DNA of 64,000 nt from Mytilus trossulus. Taxonomy: Eukaryota. Where the stretch lies: contig NC_086375.1 in assembly GCF_036588685.1 (NCBI RefSeq), positions 22,878,001 to 22,942,000 on the forward strand, given 5' to 3'. Shown here in pieces: positions 1 through 14,700 of the stretch. Under the pieces are notes generated by a model that was not told where the DNA came from, made no database searches, and was given only the letters and a program-made list of their open reading frames with translations. Each line of letters starts with the position of its first letter. The first letter of the stretch is position 1. The position numbers were made by a program, and so were the translations under genes.

Positions 1-104
1 GCCCCCCCCCCCCTCTTTTTTTTACCCTCCACTAACAAATGAATGTAGCTTGTGTGCTATCTATCCTATCAACGTCAAACGAACAACAACTCCATTTTCC
101 CCCT

Positions 105-3100
105 ATTAATAGGTCTTTCACCTTTCGGATGAAAGACCTATTGTTTTTGTTCTGATTATTAGGTCTTTCCACCTTTCCGTGGAAAGACCTATTGAATTTG
201 TTCTGATTATTATTATTAGGTCTTTCCACCTTTCCGTGGAAAGACCTATTGAATTTGTTCTGATTATTATTATTATTATTAGGTCTTTCCACCTTTCCGT
301 GGAAAGACCTATTGAATTTGTTCTGATTATTATTATTAGGTCTTTCCACCTTTCCGTGGAAAGACCTATTGTATTTGTTCTGATTATTATTATTATTATT
401 ATTATTATTATTTTTTTTTTTTTTTTTCTTCCGCCTAAATTTTATTCTTGCGCAGTATTGATGTTTCAAAAGATGTCGCTTAGATATTTGGAATATGATG
501 TCGTATAGTTTATACGCTTTAAAAAATTACAACTGCGTCACAAAATACTTTACGTTGTAAGAGTTATCTTCCCAAATACTGTTTTTCTTGTGGCCACTAC
601 TCCTTCGCAACCGTAAAAGATTACGACAAATTTATTTTACCAAATTGCTCGTTACTACTTCAGGATTAGGATATTCATTTGGACCGAAGTTATCCGGAGA
701 CTTCATATGAGAGTTATTTCCCCTTATGCATTTGATATAAGTGATATGCGTTTCTAACTGGTAAACCATCAGTGATATAGGCCTAGGGTCTTTGGATTAA
801 AGTTCATTGTTTCAAAAAAATGAAAATAAGGTCAAGGTCAAAGGTCAAGGTCATATTCTAAATTTTGATTTTGGCTTATTTTCTTTATTTTCAACAACCG
901 TGAAAGATATTGACAAATAATTTTAACTAAATTGTGAGTTGCGACATGTTGTAACTTATAAATTTTGGTTGGAAGGGTGCGTAAACAATAAATGAGAGTT
1001 TTCGCCCAACTTATATTTAAAATCATGCCTTAAGTGATATAACTCATTAACCATACATATTACAGACCTAGGATCTTTTTATTTGAGGTCCTTGGTTGGT
1101 GACCTTGAAATTGAGGTCAAGGTCAAAGGTTAATAGGACGTTCTGGATTTTGACCTTTGCTTTAAATTCACATTTATACATTATAAAGTCATAGGAACTG
1201 ACATTTTAGATTGATTTTTAATATTTTGAAAAAAAAATAGATCTCGACTTGTGGAAAGACCTTCAATTGTTCTCTGAACAATTGGTTTTTAATTATTTTT
1301 TTTTTTTTTTTTCTTCCGCCTAATTTTTTTCTTGCGTAGTATTGAGGTTTCAAAAGATGTCGCTTCGATATTTGAAATATCATATCATATAGTTTTTACG
1401 CTTTAAAAATTCACAACGACAAAATAAAATACTTTACGTTGTAAGAGTTATCTCCCCTTACACTGTTTTTCTTGTGGCCACTACTCCTTCGCAACCGTAA
1501 AAGATTACGACAAATTTATTTTACCAAATTGCTCGTTACATCTTCAGGATTAGGATATTCATTTGGACCGAAGCTTTACGGAGACTCCATATGAGAGTTA
1601 TTCCCCCTTTTTCATTTGATTCAAGTGATATGCATTTTCAACTGGTAAACCATAAGTGATAGAGACCTAGGGTCTTCAGATTTGAGGTCCTTGGTCCAAA
1701 AAAAATGAAAATGAGGTCAAGGTCAAAGGTCAAGGTCATATTCTAAATTTTGATTTTGGCTTAGTTTCACTTATTTTCAAATACCTTATGACATATCGTC
1801 GAATAATTTTTCATAAATTGTTAGTTGTAACATGTCCTTACTTGTCTATTTTGGTTGAAACGGTGCCCACACAATAAATGGGTGTTTTTGCCCATCTTAA
1901 ATTTAGAATTAAGCGTAAAGTTATATTACTCATTAACCAAACATATTTAAGACCTAGGGTCTTTTGACTTAAGGTCCTTGGTTTGTGACCTTGAAATTGA
2001 GGTCAAGGTCATAGGTTAATAGCACGTTCTAGATTTTGATATTCGCTTTAAATTCATATTAACACATCATAAAGCCATAGGAACTGACATTTCAAACTGA
2101 TTTTTCATATTTCAATAATCAAAATAGATCTTAACTAGTGGAAAGACCTTCAATTGTTCTCTGAACAATTGGTTTTTAATTTTTTTTTTTTTTCTTCCGC
2201 CTAAATTTTTTTCTTGCGTAGTATTGATGTTTCAAAAGATGTCGCTCAGATATTTGGAATATGATGTCGTAGAGTTTATACGCTTTAAAAATTTACAACT
2301 GCGTAACAAAATACTTTACGTTGTAAGAGTTATCTCCCCAAACACTGTTTTTCTTGTGGCCACTACTCCTTTGTAAACGTAAAGGATTACGACAAATTTA
2401 TTTTACCAAATTGCTCGTTACGTCTTAGAGATTAGGGTATTCATTTGGACCGAAGCTTTACAGAGACTCCATATGAGAGTTATTCCCCCTTTTTCATTTG
2501 ATTCAAGTGGTATATATTTCTAACTAGTAAACCATAAGTGATAGAGACCTAGGGTCCTCAGATTTGAGGTCCTTGGTAAAAAAAAAATGAAAATGAGGTC
2601 AAGGTCAAAGGTCAAGGTCATATTCTAAATTTTGATTTTGGCTTATTTTCACTTATTTTCAAATACGTTATGACATATATAAATCATTTTTCATAAATTG
2701 TTAGTTGCGACATGTCCTTACTTGTATATTCTGGTTGAAAGGGTGCGCAGACAATAAATGGGATTTTTTGCCCATCTTACATTTAGAATAACGCGTCAAG
2801 TGATATTACTCATTAACCAAACATATATAAGACCTAGGGTCTTTTGATTTAAGGTCCTTGGTTTGTGACCTTAAAATTGAGGTCAAGGTCATAGGTTAAA
2901 GGACGTTCTAGATTTTGACCTTTGCTTTAAATTCATATTAATACATCCTAAAGCCATAGGAACTAACATTTTAAACTGATTTTTCATATTTCAATATCAA
3001 AATAGAACTTTACTAGTGGAAAGACCTTCAATTGTTCTCTGAACAATTGGTTTTTAATTATTTTATTTTTTTTTCTTCCGCCTAAATTTTTTTCTTGCGT

Positions 3101-3954
3101 AGTATTGATGTTTCAAAAGATGTCGCTCAGATATTTGGAATATGATGTCGTATAGTTTATACGCTTTAAAAATTGACAACTGCGTAACATAATACTTTAC
3201 GTTGTAAGAGTTATCTCCCCAAACACTGTTTTTCTTGTGGCCACTACTCCTTCGCAACCGTAAAAGATTACGACAAATTTATTTTACCAAATTGCTCGTT
3301 ACTTCTTCAGGATTAGGATATTCATTTGGACCGAAGTTATCCGGAGACTCCATATGAGAGTTATTTCCCCTTATGCATTTGATATAAGTGATATGCGTTT
3401 CTAACTGGTAAACCATCAGTGATATAGCCCTAGGGTCTTTGGATTCAAGTTCCTTGGTTCAAAAAAATGAAAATAAGGTCAAGGTCAAAGGTCAAGGTCA
3501 TATTCTAAATTTTTGGCTTACTTTTTTTTTATTTTGGCTTATTTTCTCTTATTTTCAACAACCGTGAAAGATATTGACAAATTATGTTTACTTAATTGTG
3601 AGTTGCGACATGTGGTAACTTATAAATTTTGGTTGGAAGGGTGCGTAAACAATAAATGAGAGTTTTCGCCCATCTTATATTTAAAATCATGCCCAAAGTG
3701 ATATAACTCATTAACCATACATATAACAGACCTAGGGTCTTTTTATTTGAGGTCCTTGGTTGGTGACCTTGAAATTTAGGTCAAGGTCAAAGCTTAAAAG
3801 GACGTTCTAGATTTTGACCTTTGCTTTAAATTCATATTTATACATTATAAAGTCATAGGAACTGACATTTTAGATTGATTTTTAATATTTTGATAAAAAA
3901 ATAGATCTTTACTTGTGGAAAGACCTTCAATTGTTCTTTGAACAATTGGTTTTT
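105..3954 (+). mobile_element. Cluster of non-autonomous Helentron/HINE (DINE-1-like) elements: 5 stacked 5' heads followed by 4 bodies of ~880-900 bp
   Basis: Heads start at 111, 161, 218, 281 and 338. Each is a hairpin (AGGTCTTTCCAC-ctttcc-GTGGAAAGACCT), then attg(a/t)atttgttctg, then (ATT)n. Bodies lie at ~411-1290, 1291-2177, 2178-3055 and 3056-3954. Each body ends in the subterminal IR GTGGAAAGACCT, a 3' hairpin AATTGTTC-tct-GAACAATT and GGTTTT. SubTIR + short IR + microsatellite + 3' hairpin at T-rich sites is the established Helentron/HINE architecture. Confidence 0.8.
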
Positions 3955-4423
3955 AATTATATTTATTGCGTTTCTGCTTAGAAAATGTGTTAATTGATAT
4001 GAATTTTGAAAGGCGCATTCAATAACTACAAAAACAGTCAGTGTGTCTTGTTTGCACACTTAGGTTGCAAGAGCAGTTTGAGAAGAAAAATATCTCCTTT
4101 TTACTGGTGTACGTTTGTCCTTGATTTAAATAGTTCTATCGTCCTAAAGATTGAACTCAAAACATATCTCTAAGTACATCGCTTGAGGATAACAGTATTT
4201 TGATCACTCATGTTCTTTTATGGATTACAAATTCGTCCGCAAGATAATTTCCCGATTTGGGTTGTAATGTTTTTGTCACCAAGCAAACGACTTACCCATC
4301 ATTTTGCTCTGGATTCCACCCAGATAAGTAGAAAAATCAGTCAAGTGTGCACAGATAAGATAGATCTGAAATATATACATTATTCTCAGTCCCCTTACCT
4401 GTTTTGACCCAACTATCTCCATC

Positions 4424-7400
4424 ATGAAAGTCTTCATTGCCATTTGTTGTTTGGTGGCTGTGTTTGGGCAGGAGCCACCGCCATGTGGTAAGTTTTTATT
4501 GCATTAATTTTTATAATTAGATATAATTGATAAACTTTCCAAAACAAACCTGTTTAAAAAAACTGAAACCTACATGTACTTTGTCGGGTACAAGGAGAGG
4601 GTAGGTCAAATAGAGCTCTCCTTCAGATTCAATATAAAAAAAAAGAAGATGTGGTATGATTGCCAATGAGACAACTACCCACAAAAGACCAAAATGACAC
4701 AAACATTAACAACTCAAATAAGACACAGGTAACCAGCAATGTAAACATCAGTCATTACTGAGGCATTTAATAAAAATCTAACTTCATTATCTACAATACT
4801 TAAATTTTCGATGGTATATGTATAGTGGCTGTTTTTACTTTACCATTACATTAAGAATCCAAAATTCCAAATTTCGAATATTCAATGGCAAAACACATTG
4901 TAATCTTTGTTGTAAGAGTTATTTAATTACCATATGACATAGACAAATTATTATATGACATTGGTGTATGCAACATTGTTAAGAACAAATAATTGAACTG
5001 ATGGAATGCATGAGTTTTTAATTCCTGACTGTAAAATAGGTTCAACTGACGTCAAACGAGCTTTTTTCGTATTACATTTTAGCACTTAAGAATGTTTCTC
5101 GTGATGCAATATATTTCCGTAAAAATTAGTAAAAAATTACTAGGGAAATAACTGTTGAAGTTATGTCTTCTAAAAATATAATACAAAGATAGAAGCCATC
5201 CTCGCCGGCGGAATACAAAACGCATTGCAGTTCCACAAAACATTAAAATGAAAACCAAAGGCTGGGCCATATGAACCGCATTCACTTGCAAATTTCAGAA
5301 TTTTCAGCACTTGCTTAAAAGGTTGTTAATTCATAATTACTAATTTAATATAAAAAGTTAGACATAGCTGTATCGTTTGAGTTAATTTTCTATTTCATAG
5401 TATGTGAAGTGTCAGAAAATTTATGTTATAGTTATAGTTTCACTTCTCTACAAAACAATATTTTTTTATTCGTATTCCATTCCAGAATCACCAAAACAAT
5501 GGGAAGGCCGACGTGTAGCGGTAAGTAGGCATTGAAATTACTAAACACAATATTTGATATGGCCTTCTCGTACGCCGTACGTCTTTAACGAAAGAAAGAC
5601 AACTCACGATTAATTTAGTTTTAAAGAACTATAATATTCTTCTAAAGATAAAAGGCGGCACAGCTAACAGCTACAGAATTATCTGATAAAAACCTTTATA
5701 TAAGCTTTGCATCGCTCCTACTTGTATGGAACACAACAAAAATCCTAGTGTCGTAAAAGACAATATAAAACGGATTCGAAAGGTACCGAAAGGGACATGC
5801 AAAGTCATAAGTCGGAAATAAACTGACAACGCCATTGCAAAAAAAATAAAAAGACCAAGAGACAACACTATACAAAACACAAAATAGAAAACCAAAGATT
5901 GAGCAACACGAACCAAAGAAAAAACTAGGGGTGTTCTATAAAAAGCTAATTTAAGGATGCTCAAATCTCACACAAATCCTCTAACAACATATAAATCGAG
6001 GTAAATGATTGTAGTTCCAATACCAGAGAAACCGGATGCGTCGACAGAACAGCTTTTCGTATGCAGCCATCACTTGCCATATGGACCCACACTCCGTTAG
6101 AAAAGTCTCAACCCAAAATATGACACAATCGTTACGACGACTTATAAAAATAAAACATAGTAGGCTTAATTTATATATGATTCAGAAAGTCAGACGAGCG
6201 TTTCTTCTTACATAAGATTCGTAAGTGGTGCTCAAACCAAAGCAGGTGACAAACAATACTAAAAAGATGTATCTCTTTTTGCGATTTATACTAAATGTTC
6301 GATATAACTGTAATCCAATTGGTGATTTTAATTTTTGTCATTCAAAATTTATTTCAGTATGACAGGTCAAAAATGTTTGAAGAAAGATCAAAGGTCAGCT
6401 ACGATGAAACAAACGAAAGAGTGAGGATTGTAGAAGAAATAGAAATTGGTCAGGACAGAGAATACTATGATGTTCTATACCTCCATAACATTGTAAGTAT
6501 ATTGTTGAAGACAGAGATATATTTACTATATTATATACATCCATAACATTTTAAGTAAATAAGAAAGGACACAGATATTACGACGGTGTGCTTTACCTCT
6601 ATAACATTGTGAATAAATTGACGAAGACAAATAATATTACGATGTTCTGTAACTCCTCAACAAAGTAAGAAAATTGATGAAACCGGAGATTACCAAAATG
6701 TTCTTCACCTTTTAAACATTGTAATTAAATTGCTAGAGCATGTACTACTACGATGTTTTATACCTTCTAGACATTGTTAGTAAATAAGAGGCAACAATTG
6801 TTAACCGATGTTAAAAGACACCAAGTTGATACCTTAGTACGCCAGACAACCTTCTATTATTCGTTTACATAAGACTCATCAGTGGCGCTCGAATCAAAAT
6901 AGAATCATATTCAAAACAGTGTGGTCCTGGCCATTGATTGACGACCTAAATTATCCCATTGACTGGGACAGATTAGGTGAACGTTTGTCGGTAACAATCA
7001 CTGCTCACTATGTACATGTTAAAGACACCGAATCTGTGGGGTCACCAAAGGTTCTCAACACCTAAATAAAGCAATTCGAAAAACTAATCCGGAATAATAG
7101 GATGTGTTGATTTATATCAATAATATAAATCAAAACATAAAGGTTATTCCTGAATAATTTTTCGAATTATTTTATTATTAAAAGCGTTAAGAACCTTTGG
7201 TGACCCCACAGTTTAAATTCTATAATAAGTAAGAAGTGAGCAATGGTCGTTACCGACAAACGTTCACCTAATCTGTCCCAGTCAATGGGATAATTTAGGT
7301 CGTCAATAAATGGCCAGGACCACACTGTTTTGAATATGATTCTACTAAGAAAGCCAATTGCTGACTTTTCAGTGCTCTTCATCTTTGTTCTTCTTAGAAC

Positions 7401-8389
7401 GCAGTCGGAGGGCACTGGAAATCAAACATCCTTAAAAGTCTCGTAAATCTATTTTCAATTTAATTTTCAAAAACCTGGATTTTATGTAACATTGCATTAG
7501 TTTGGATCGAAAGCTTTGCAAACATCTTGGAGAATGATTTCCAAGAACTGTTTGAAGATAACTAGGGGGAAATCAGCAACCATAGATATATCCGTTATTA
7601 TATATAAATTCGTATATGAAATATACACAACTGTCATAAATTTACACTTTTAATTTTAAAGGGAAAAGAATACAGATTAAATTTCAAAACGCGCCAATGT
7701 AATGTAACAGAACTGACAAGACCATTCAGACCTTTCGGAGTACCTCCAGAGGCAGAGTTCGAAGGATCTGCAACTCTCGGGGTTTCAGGTCTACCCGGAG
7801 AGTTTCTTACCATAGAAAATTTTGCAGGAGATTTGAAGCGTGAAAGCACACGATTCTTTGGTTTTGTTACATCACCTGACTGTTATCCTGTTCAAGCCAA
7901 CTTCATGAGCACCGATACCGGTTTAGTTACCATGTCGTAAGTATTTTGTGGATAACAAATGGTGTATTCGAACACATTTGTGTACTTGTGTAATCGAACA
8001 CACAATTTTATGATTGTTCCTGTTCTTAGTTATGATTTGGACTTGTTTAAAATAAATAAATAGAGAATTGTTCATTGAAAAGAAAATGTTTTTTTTATGT
8101 GGAACCCTTTCCAAAGTTTTGGAGTCTTTATGAAAAAACCCGGGAAATGGGTGCAGATGGTGCACGTTTACACAGAATTGACTGCCTGATTGTATGAATT
8201 TGTAATGTGGCAGCCATTTCCCTTCATTTGCTCTATTTTAGTTGCTATTTACCAAAGTAATGCACGTGAATCAGACACAACTGAAGAATTGTCTAATAGT
8301 ATGAATTTACTTTTTTCAGATTCTATGACATCAACGTTGGAATCACAGATCCAAATGTTTTTATTCCACCTCCAGAATGTTTTAAATAA
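4424..8389 (+). CDS. Ependymin-related protein (EPDR family), secreted, 192 aa, 5 coding exons
   Basis: Exons 4424-4487, 5486-5520, 6358-6492, 7662-7936 and 8320-8389. All introns are GT-AG with phases 1,0,0,2; total 579 nt. Translation: signal peptide MKVFIAICCLVAVFG, then QEPPPCESPKQWEGR...SYDETNERVR...LYLHNIGKEYRLNFKTRQCN...DCYPV...FYDINVGITDPNVFIPPPECFK*. CxSPxQWEGR, SYD and FYDIxxGIxDPxVFxPPxxC are ependymin hallmarks. Confidence 0.93.
6189..6240 (-). ncRNA. Decayed type I hammerhead ribozyme remnant (retrozyme/Penelope-associated)
   Basis: The minus strand reads gagcaccacTTACGAatcttatgtaagaaGAAAcgctcGTCtgac. GAAA and the minimal helix III/GUC are kept, but the CUGAUGA core is mutated. 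It is homologous to 6838-6899. Confidence 0.5.
6452..6790 (+). repeat. Degenerate ~57-bp minisatellite (6 units) built from the EPDR exon 3 end and its 5' splice site
   Basis: The first unit, gacagagaatactatgatgttctatacctccataacatt|gtaagtatattgttgaa, is repeated with divergence five more times into the intron. Confidence 0.8.
6838..6899 (-). ncRNA. Decayed type I hammerhead ribozyme remnant (retrozyme/Penelope-associated)
   Basis: The minus strand reads gagcgccaCTGATGAgtcttatgtaaacGAATaatagaaggttGTCtggcgta. The CUGAUGA core and stem II are present; GAAA and helix III are damaged. Confidence 0.55.
6902..7342. mobile_element. Foldback MITE with >100-bp TIRs and TA TSD in EPDR intron 3
   Basis: gaatcatattcaaaacagtgtggtcctggccatt...aacgtttgtcggtaac at the left end is the reverse complement of the right end. 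An inner arm pair is ctgtggggtcaccaaaggttct / agaacctttggtgaccccacag. TA flanks it at 6900-6901 and 7343-7344. Confidence 0.85.
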
Positions 8390-11754: not shown

Positions 11755-14700
11755 TATAGACAATAATAGTTCATTGACTTGACATATCAACGATATAAGG
11801 ATGGGGCTTAGAAACGGGGAAATGCGAGGCTGTGCAGGATATGTCAAGTCAATGCATTATTATTGTCTTTATACTGCAATCTAAAAAAAACCATTTTCAA
11901 TTGTTATTTAGTGTGTTAATGTTATTTATTTGATTTAAATATTTAATTCAAATATTTATTGCCATATAAACTTTAAACATTAAGTTTGTGACATATAAAA
12001 TAATAAACAATATAACTATATTTCACATATATATATACACAATCATCCATTTACAGTAACTATTCCAGTGTTCACTGTCCTCAGTTCTAATGACCTTTTG
12101 ATGTAGGACCCCAAATTATTTACTTGTGATGGTGTTGATGGATTGAGTATAGAAATCAACTTTTCTTCATCAGATAAATCTTTAACAGAAAAATTAAAAT
12201 CCAAGTTGTTAAAAAAGTTATTTCTTAGTTCCATATTTAATTTACAATCTAATATAAAATGTTTTTCGTTTTCTAATGTTTTACATTTAAGGCATAATCT
12301 CTGCTCTCTAGGAATATTTGTATGTCTGCCTTTTTCTATATTTAAATTATGGTCACTTATTCTTAGTTTTGTTATTAATTTTCTATAAGTAAAGTTTGAT
12401 GTTCTTAAATAGTCTTCAAAACACAAATTTTGTTTAAGATTCTTATATAAATAAAATTTACTTTTTTCATCTATGTTTTGCATCTTATCATGTATCAAAT
12501 TTTCAAAGAAGTTTTTAGAGCTTGTTTTTATATAAACTTTAAATGAATTATTTATTTTTTTGTCTGAACTAGTATTTTGTTGAATTTGTGATATATCTAT
12601 ATTAAGTTCACTTAAAATATTTTTAACATAGGTAAACCAGGAGTATACTCCTTCCGAGTCTAAGTTTTTACTAAGCAGCTAAGCTTCTGTCAAAAGAGGA
12701 TTTAATTTACAGCATTCAAATCTCTTTAAATATAATAAAGTTTGTGTTTTAATATTAAATTCTATAGGAAGTCTCCCCAATTCAGCTCTAGTTGCAAGAT
12801 TAGATGCATTCTTTCTAGTTCCTAGTAAAAAAATTCAAAATTGCAAGTGTAATTTTTCAATTGGACTTTTTTCTGCAAAATTTAAAATATCTACTTTCTT
12901 TCCAGAATTTAAAGCTCTGTTTTTTGCTCTAAAAAGAGATATATATTTGTCTAAATATGTAACTTCAGAGTTGTATATCATTATTGGTTTATTGAGGGAA
13001 TCAAAGAGGTGGCATGCAACTTTGACTGGTATTCAGAGACTTAGTGTAAGCTTTTAACCCAAATAATGCTTTTTTGGCTTTATAAACAAGTTCTTTAGTG
13101 CTATGAGACATGTTGCCATTGCATTTAATTAATAAGCCTAAAAATGAGTATTCTGATACATTATCAATGTGACTGTTTTTAAAATTCAAAAATGTTTTTT
13201 CTAGTTTAGAGCATGTCCTATTAAATATCATAGATTTTGTCTTTTTAATATTCAATTCTATCTGCCATTTATCACAGTATAAAGCTAAATTATTTAGACT
13301 ATTATGTAGCCCTGTTTTAGTTTCTGAAAAAAATAACAAGTCATCTGCAAACAGCAGGCAACTTAGTTTTGAGTCTATAATTTTTAGAGGATAACACAAG
13401 TCATTATCAAAGACCTCTGTGATGTCTTTAATGAATATATTAAATAAAGTAGGACTCAGTGAATCACCTTGTTTTACCCCTCTTGTAATATTAAACATAT
13501 CAGTTACCATGTTTTTGTATTTAATTGAAGACCCAGTGTCATCATATTGATGTTTTATAATGTTAAAAAATTTCTTCCCTACCCCCATATTATAAAGTTT
13601 GTTCAAAAGAGCATCTCTCCATACAGAGTCAAATGCCTTTCTTAAATCTACAAAACAAGCATAAAATTTCTTTTTGTTTTTATGTAAATACTTATTTATT
13701 AGAGATTTTAATATAAAAATGCTATCTGCAGTTCTGTGATTCTCTCTAAAACCGAATTGGCTGTTACTTAATTGTTCATCTATAATTTTAGTGAGCCTAT
13801 TGTTTAGAGTTGCATTAAATATTTTTGCAAGACAATTAATCATAGAGACTCCTCTGTAGTTATTGGGATCATTTTTATCTCCAGATTTATGTAATGGGAC
13901 TAAAAATGAGTTTCTCCATGTTTGAGGGTATTTCCCTGTTAACAGAATAAGATTAAATATTTTTACATAATTTTTAATCATAAATGGGTTAGAGTATTTT
14001 ATAACTTCATTTATAATTCTATCAGGGCCAGCAACTTTCCCTACTTTTAGTCCATTTATAACTTTTTTTATTTCTGAGAAACTGAAAGGTTTATCTGTTT
14101 CTAAATTTTCTATAATATTATTTTCTATATTCTTAAGTTTATTTTCTATTTCCCTTTGGAAGGTGGTATTAATTTTAGTTGGATTTCCTTGATCTATAAA
14201 GTGCTTGATCAGTTTGTCTTCTTCTTTTAATATTTCAGGGATAGTATCCGTTTCATCTGTTCTCTTTTTTATAAATGATTTTAGAATGTTCCAATATTCT
14301 TTTGGACTTTTACCACTATTATTCTATTTTCTTTAGCTTTACCATCTTTTTAAGATTTTTGCAAAGAAGAAAATATTTTTGTTTTAAATGATTATTAATA
14401 GGGTTATGTTTTATTTTATTACCAATGGAATTAATCTCTCTTTTTGTTTCATAAATTACATTATCTGACCAAGGTTGTCTTTTTTTCTTTTTCTTTTTCT
14501 TTTTACTTCCAAAAAATTTCTTACATGCTTATTGGGAAAAATCCTCCTTTAAAAAGGCCTCATATCACACCTGTCAGGCGGAGAAATATACAACACGATG
14601 AAATGTACATCATTACCTGTTGAAAACCGCAATCAATGCAAATTCGTTTGTTTACAGACTAAAATATCAACAATAAACATAAAACATAATCATTTATAGG

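Follow-up and report, generated by a model that had tools for sequence, protein, structure and literature searches.

Hairpin heads on the left, bodies on the right: a probable nested stack of non-coding Helentron elements in Mytilus trossulus

Introduction

How several hairpin heads come to be piled up on the left, and a matching set of bodies on the right, is the question raised by positions 105 to 3,954 of a 64,000-nucleotide stretch of Mytilus trossulus DNA (NCBI RefSeq assembly GCF_036588685.1, contig NC_086375.1, positions 22,878,001 to 22,942,000, forward strand), which we refer to as the window. A sequence-only reading of the window had proposed that these are Helentron/HINE-like elements, each inserted into the ATT tract of an earlier copy, and this proposal came through three genome-wide refutation tests. 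We conclude that the stack very probably consists of nested non-coding Helentron (HINE) elements, every copy lying in the ATT tract that follows the 5' hairpin of an earlier one, with a RepHel protein likely drawn to the ends of resident copies.

Anatomy of the stack

An intact element consists of a head, an (ATT)n/T tract, a body and a tail. The four near-identical heads reported at 161, 218, 281 and 338 are all found, each a perfect 12-bp hairpin and each followed by an ATT tract, the tracts being of unlike length (Table 1). The four bodies are also present, and all four end, as claimed, in a subterminal inverted repeat (subTIR) and a 3' hairpin, namely GTGGAAAGACCT and a 9-bp stem, with tails starting at 1251, 2138, 3016 and 3915. 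They had been described as headless, which does not hold for body 1, as it lies directly behind the head at 338; head 4 and body 1 together are the innermost, intact element. Among the eight nearest relatives of body 1, four carry heads, and all four have the GTAT head variant. As cut for pairwise alignment, the bodies are 866-884 bp long and 86-96% identical (96% between bodies 1 and 4, 92% between bodies 2 and 3), with degenerate internal repeats of ~285 bp. The longest frame in any of them is at most 82 codons, and thus they have no coding capacity.

The window holds only part of the stack, whose left end lies 4.9 kb upstream and whose right end borders unique DNA. The whole stack measures 8.8 kb (G000:C3:22873122-22881957; window start G000:C3:22878001) and can be written as SSSS s SS s s l ~190 bp~ L SSSS ssss, with heads in capitals and bodies in lower case, in total 11 heads and 8 bodies. 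The window has a fifth head, at 111, which is that of L, a sister family with longer elements; an L body sits just upstream of the window and is followed by a spacer of ~190 bp, and the same spacer parts the L units of tandem arrays at C1:42.0 Mb and C3:46.15 Mb. The equal counts claimed for this locus are therefore true of the four S heads and four bodies, but not of the window with its L head or of the whole stack, and the 4+4 count is partly an edge effect because the window starts mid-stack. The claimed mirror pairing of heads 1 to 4 with bodies 4 to 1 fits bodies 1 and 4, is ambiguous for body 3 and fails for body 2; since three of the four S heads are identical, the window alone is not suited to a test of mirror order. 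An empty allele would be expected to branch at 3953, and it is exactly there that contigs of three out of four runs start or diverge, one of them with 73 unaligned letters at this point; this is no more than a hint of such an allele.

Order of heads and bodies across the genome

The 1.3-Gb genome contains 556 occurrences of the exact 30-nt head (reversed control pattern, 0) and 1,420 of a looser head pattern. Head-head junctions number 1,063 and tail-body junctions 603, a ratio that is not used as a test because the two patterns are unlike in strictness and family range. Regions were chosen almost entirely by head patterns (two by a tail-body junction), not at random, and 103 merged regions (1.31 Mb) were parsed into 165 clusters; of 89 places picked in one of these selections, parts of the long arrays at C11:32.4 Mb and C13:1.58 Mb lie outside the sample, and a token-free region at C1:48.64 Mb was dropped. 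Two clusters that are identical segmental copies (76 and 77) were left out of the counts of family order, relatives, inner/outer pairs and internal junctions, and incomplete clusters were left out of the count correlation.

At least six sister Helentron/HINE families share the plan of head, ATT tract and tail and nest in each other. This clan comprises S, Q, M, N, P, L and the more distant K, which have distinct heads, bodies and tails; the S body is ~870 bp long and the L body 1.7-3.4 kb. Complete clusters number 78; in the 71 of them that are multi-copy, with more than a single head or body, head and body counts are correlated (Spearman 0.64). The two counts are equal in 33 of the 71 and within one of each other in 53, and all 33 balanced clusters are valid bracket words, as in the ten-by-ten example QSSSS ss SSS sss SS ssssq at C1:100.19-100.20 Mb.

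The bracket test was applied to bodies separated from their heads. In the 15 balanced informative clusters, pairing heads and bodies last-in-first-out gives a family match in 41 of 44 cases, compared with 18 for the same order and 25.0 +/- 3.5 for shuffled order (p = 5e-5). For all 32 informative clusters the figures are 107/129 last-in-first-out, 73 in the same order and 80.1 when shuffled. Where a cluster has two bodies and two unlike heads, the order is mirrored in 12 of 14 cases and is never the same. Within the S family, two head variants also tend to lie in mirror order (17/24 against 10.5 shuffled, p = 0.002; in all clusters, 60/108 against 41.5), using a predictor of head variant from body that was correct for 83 of 120 directly joined pairs. 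In addition, the CAAC head variant accompanies a GGTTG tail variant.

The landing site and the strength of targeting

The insertion point can be narrowed down from filled and empty versions of the same site. A tandem repeat at C3:46.147-46.165 Mb has a unit of 3,973 bp, and copy 4 differs from copy 3 by a single 940-bp insert of one head and one body and by two 1-base indels, with 0 mismatches; the new body, 5% diverged, was placed before the old, identical body. This paralog pair bears out the expectation that one head is gained together with one body. The ATT units to the left and right of the insert add up to the empty count plus one in 6/6 filled/empty pairs, which comprise S in S, S in L and four cases of K in L, the latter from related arrays and not fully independent.

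The outer left flanks read T-W-A-T-T (68, 65, 68, 69 and 68 of 70 at the successive positions), and the outer right flanks after the tail read ATT in 37 of 43 cases and ATA in 6, which favours terminal bases of the element over a 3-bp target duplication. The element ends read (T)AGGTC and TTTTAA(T), and the 5' TC and 3' CTRR of canonical Helitrons (HLE1) are absent. The data fit an element with ends T...AT that would insert at T^T without target duplication, as is the rule for HLE2 (PMC11417382); the filled tracts, with their one extra ATT, are compatible with both A^T and T^T.

Insertions fall at TWATT, which the tract offers from its second ATT onward. The motif is absent at the first ATT, and the commonest of the listed head-head spacers are never a single ATT. 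Insertion into the tract would displace the old body rightward and so produce the last-in-first-out order. The tail end of the element also recreates the motif, and insertion there would set siblings side by side; 34 of 78 tail-head junctions are flush. Because the tract offers TWATT and the 3' end recreates it, each insertion brings new sites. The idea that the element carries its own preferred target thus stands, with the amendments that sister families nest there as well and that the 3' end is a second landing site.

Nesting is too frequent to be accounted for by the motif alone. The loci picked by means of the first 100 exact heads contain 105 such heads, of which 83 immediately follow a head or tail of the clan, a count somewhat inflated by segmental copies and head slippage. 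We estimate ~2e7 TWATT sites genome-wide, from the density in the window, compared with ~1e4 in clan tracts, so that chance nesting would be well under 1%. As a preference for a short motif cannot by itself give ~80% nesting, a resident end likely attracts insertion, putatively through binding of the enzyme at the subTIR or hairpin or through a structure prone to become single-stranded.

It is also conceivable that nesting is passive, the (ATT)n/T-rich tract itself being a strong, strand-specific target with no part played by the resident hairpin. Outermost insertions in unique DNA use the same TWATT (68-69/70 at each fixed position), and not every tract is hit, as seen from one longer spacing among ~54 L units at C1:41.95-42.06 Mb. 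S-type tails in reverse orientation behind a head tract number 0 genome-wide, compared with the 1,063 head-head junctions in the same orientation, and strand-specific targeting alone can give this result, as argued, in the accessible text, for telomeric Helitrons of Paramecium (PMC13085455). Against this, even ATTATT, a short motif and not a long free tract, is estimated at 2.8e6 sites genome-wide compared with the ~1e4 sites in clan tracts. Insertions moreover crowd towards the hairpin side, with 125 of 261 head-head spacers holding two ATT units and 72 holding three, while the tracts of intact S copies mostly have 3-9 units. We therefore regard purely passive nesting as rather unlikely.

Origin of the bodies

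If a 51-60 bp minisatellite of heads and a 900-bp satellite of bodies had each expanded locally, in one and the same place, neighbouring bodies should be more alike than distant ones. This satellite expectation is not borne out: median divergence is 11.4% between neighbouring bodies and 11.3% between random pairs, and among 179 pairs of adjacent bodies a single one is within 0.5%. As the sequence-only reading had anticipated, bodies of a cluster are seldom each other's closest relatives, a sibling being nearest for only 17 of 309 bodies. Those 17 do speak for some local amplification, as do the three identical heads of the window with their 120-bp period, the head-only arrays and the unbalanced clusters. 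The mirrored order of unlike families and the paralog that gained a diverged body together with its head argue against it, and independent local amplification is very unlikely to be more than a secondary process.

One-step rolling-circle concatemers, or recombination with a circular intermediate, might also be considered as the source of the arrays. In plants, partial rolling-circle replication is reported to yield multiple 5' ends that share one 3' end (Xiong 2016, cited after the accessible text of PMC12628747), head-to-tail L arrays with a fixed spacer exist in this genome, and the L body, spacer and L head of our locus could stem from such a circle. Yet concatemers should repeat one template, and here neighbours are as diverged as random copies and often belong to other families; crossover with a circle should give head-body-head-body, not head-head-body-body. 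An origin of this kind is hardly credible for the stacks. Because siblings are rarely nearest and neighbours are diverged like random pairs, neither local duplication nor single-template concatemers can be the main process. An assembly artefact has almost no probability: such repeats are difficult to assemble and no stack-spanning reads were seen, but its bodies differ by 4-14%, the same grammar recurs on many contigs and the junction arithmetic is consistent.

Incoming copies derive from distant loci and from sister families. No donor of the whole stack was found among the fetched loci, and the nearest relatives of its bodies are scattered over separate loci. The inner copy is nearer to a relative than the outer copy in 31 of 47 pairs (p = 0.024), the pairs not being independent. 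The 99.9% identity of body 2 to a copy on C2 shows that the family has moved recently.

Departures from simple nesting

Several observations weigh against nesting as the complete account. At this locus, the three closest relatives of body 2 go with the GTAT head, whereas its bracket partner is GAAT, and heads outnumber bodies by three. Equal head and body counts had been expected in clusters generally; the correlation stands, but in 38 of the 71 multi-copy clusters the two counts differ (heads in excess in 25, bodies in 13), part of the imbalance, but not all of it, being due to last bodies longer than the region fetched. Non-S heads match in family in only 33 of 47 cases across all clusters, and the family rules themselves, which agree with 203 of 223 directly joined head-body pairs, were devised after the data had been viewed. 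Finally, there are arrays composed of heads alone, 13 to more than 50 of them, and heads must therefore also multiply independently of bodies.

Simple nesting does not explain two features of our locus, its surplus of three heads and its inverted segment of L body, spacer and L head. Such a layout would result if copying started at one head within a tandem L array and ended at a tail that is not its partner, and slippage of heads together with loss of bodies would equally yield it. More generally, unbalanced stacks would likely arise from copy events that start at one head and end at a non-partner tail, or alternatively from gain and loss by slippage of 51-bp heads or of whole bodies. The sequence-only reading had further proposed that one mechanism made both a 60-bp minisatellite and a 900-bp satellite. 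Nesting does account for the two side by side; long head minisatellites and arrays of L units, on the other hand, need ordinary tandem amplification as a further step.

Arrays of several kinds were encountered in the survey. Head-only minisatellites of ~15 to >50 diverged heads lie at C3:15.62 Mb, C11:43.477 Mb and C13:9.884 Mb, the first with a higher-order period of ~884 bp. The L array at C1:41.95-42.06 Mb comprises ~54 head-to-tail units of ~2.1 kb over 110 kb, one spacing holding a nested insert; comparable L arrays occur on C3, C6 and C11, and C1:18.81 Mb has a P-headed array of 2.7 kb. An S head is joined directly to a Q-type tail in 7 pairs at several loci (e.g., L048 and L057). Chimeric subfamilies of this make-up would be expected if nested heads and bodies re-pair.

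A likely autonomous partner

The genome contains 115 matches to Helitron_like_N, and we examined seven RepHel loci, two because they lie near open-ended stacks and five for their long frames. One of them, at C3:3.601-3.626 Mb, has five S heads, then four short bodies and finally a body of 20.9 kb that contains a RepHel frame of 3,101 codons; the first 457 bases of this long body are 88% identical to the S body, and its tail motif is the same. The autonomous element is thus the outermost member of a stack. Another RepHel copy, at C5:9.055-9.077 Mb, has an N head and a broken frame and is enclosed by an L element whose body closes afterwards. Three further RepHel loci have clan ends beside the frame, and at two of the seven no clan ends flank it (none at C11:53.8 Mb; a single K-type tail, on the other strand, at C4:39.7 Mb).

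In three partner frames, Pfam identified Herpes_teg_N, OTU, DUF6570, Helitron_like_N and PIF1. Exo_endo_phos was found in the C12 copy (E 1e-9) and, below the cut-off (E 0.006), in the C3 copy, where a stop codon interrupts the domain. With a Rep domain and PIF1 helicase, DUF6570 and a C-terminal AP endonuclease, the partner can be classed as a Helentron/HLE2 element. The assignment of the window elements to Helentron/HINE is upheld by this partner, with its HLE2-type domains and the same ends. Judging from the domains and shared ends, RepHel-EN elements probably mobilise the non-coding copies.

Other RepHel loci differ in layout. At C3:16.466-16.496 Mb, a 3,000-codon RepHel frame is opposite in strand to the K-like head-to-tail direction, which recalls the HLE2 elements with reversed open reading frames described in the available portions of PMC5148889 and PMC11417382. 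A sister family at C9:58.757-58.766 Mb has a T-only tract instead of (ATT)n and a head-head, body-body layout behind a RepHel frame. Repeated RepHel copies ~20-29 kb apart, with equal scores and frame lengths, occur at C4:39.69-39.74 Mb and C7:50.12-50.14 Mb and might be tandem autonomous elements.

Comparison with known elements

The following comparisons draw on the accessible portions of the published texts. HINE/DINE-1 elements (Thomas et al., 2014, PMC4067079; oyster Cg_HINE, PMC7492417) insert at T-rich targets without target duplication, and clustering of related insertions is mentioned by Thomas et al. They are non-coding, with a 5' subTIR and a nearby inverted repeat, then a microsatellite, and a 3' subTIR with a stem-loop. 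The window elements likewise have a 5' subTIR with a short inverted repeat, a 5' microsatellite and a complementary 3' subTIR with a stem-loop, and their ends are common to the non-coding elements and the autonomous RepHel element at C3:3.601-3.626 Mb. They differ in that the microsatellite is (ATT)n instead of GTCY-like and that the clean central array has no counterpart here; a microsatellite serving as landing site and bracket-ordered stacks are, as far as these portions go, described only here.

Tandem 5' termini were previously reported for FoHeli (Helitron2) of Fusarium oxysporum (Chellapan et al., 2016, PMC5148889), together with a self-insertion hypothesis, one nested example and a model in which copying begins at the leftmost 5' end and stops once the first 3' end is reached. 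Like the mussel elements, FoHeli has TNAT before the insertion point and includes some elements with reversed open reading frames. In FoHeli, however, several 5' termini share a single 3' terminus, whereas here the displaced bodies are kept and paired in mirror order, and the stacks are up to about ten deep, involve more than one family and make up the majority of sampled copies. The domains of the partner, including Exo_endo_phos, and its T^T-compatible insertion resemble those of HLE2 subgroup b/Helentron (HELIANO, PMC11417382), for which self-nesting at a fixed site is not mentioned in the accessible text.

Target preference leading to clustered copies that seed arrays was proposed in the double-insertion route of McGurk and Barbash (2018, PMC5932611). 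That route concerns side-by-side dimers at a host site, and the word Helitron does not occur in the available text; here, by contrast, the site lies inside the element and is renewed with each insertion. Helitrons of Paramecium (PMC13085455) are rolling-circle elements in a simple repeat with an absolute orientation bias, but this repeat is the host telomere and is not borne by the element. Shuffled Helitron loci in oyster and multiple 5' ends in plants have been described (PMC12628747), a frog study reports tandem arrays, not self-nesting (PMC12001565), and the accessible parts of PMC7348941 and bioRxiv 10.64898/2026.02.10.705023 contain nothing on nesting. Our search, which did not extend to subscription papers, Repbase or Dfam, returned no published description of HINE stacks that are bracket-ordered, mix families and have a fixed landing site inside the element. 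Overall, the basic idea of self-insertion is already published for fungal elements, and it is the degree of fixed-site, bracket-ordered nesting that was not found in the literature searched.

Features of the locus and its neighbourhood

Table 1. Parts of the element stack within the window (positions are those of the window)
Feature	Position	Strand	Remark
End of the ~190-bp spacer that follows the L body	1..110	+	Same spacer in L tandem arrays
L-family head with 2 ATT units; no L body after it at this locus	111..160	+	L heads precede L bodies in 13/13 directly joined cases
S head 1: 5' subTIR and inverted copy (12-bp hairpin), 4 ATT	161..217	+	
S head 2, 6 ATT	218..280	+	
S head 3, 4 ATT	281..337	+	
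S head 4, GTAT variant, uninterrupted tract of 10 ATT and 15 T	338..427	+	
Body 1; 3' subTIR and stem-loop at 1251-1291	428..1291	+	
Body 2; 99.9% identical to a C2 copy whose head variant differs from head 3	1313..2178	+	
Body 3; mosaic, first 200 bases like bodies 1 and 4, then like body 2	2194..3056	+	Window-by-window differences
Body 4; right end of the entire 8.8-kb stack	3075..3957	+	Unique flank beyond

To the right of the stack, an ependymin-like gene begins after ~470 bp (4424-~8200, + strand), with a first exon resembling a signal peptide (4424-4487) and a Pfam Ependymin match (E 1e-20) over 7620-7937. Two GATA-type motifs and a TATA-like stretch precede it at ~4320-4380, and a very high-copy short repeat lies in its first intron at 4637-4714. 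At ~12040-14530 on the - strand, the translation shows, on visual inspection, pieces of a reverse transcriptase frame of the LINE type.

Implications

In the PubMed Central sources available to us in part, the target choice of Helentrons is described only as 'T-rich' or 'TT'. Since the site is defined here, nesting is in large excess and a likely partner protein has emerged, target choice becomes testable. The stacks explain why these elements would be broken up, in repeat annotation, into a minisatellite of 51-60 bp and a satellite of 900 bp. They also form an ordered record of which families moved when. Beyond this, a possible role is offered for the 5' microsatellite of HINEs. We suggest, tentatively and with somewhat less than even confidence, that the HINE/DINE-1 microsatellite may be a self-made landing pad, at which RepHel would recognise resident ends and place its own and sister copies, so that host DNA would mostly be spared, the order of insertions would be recorded, and re-pairing of heads and bodies might give rise to chimeric subfamilies, minisatellites and arrays.

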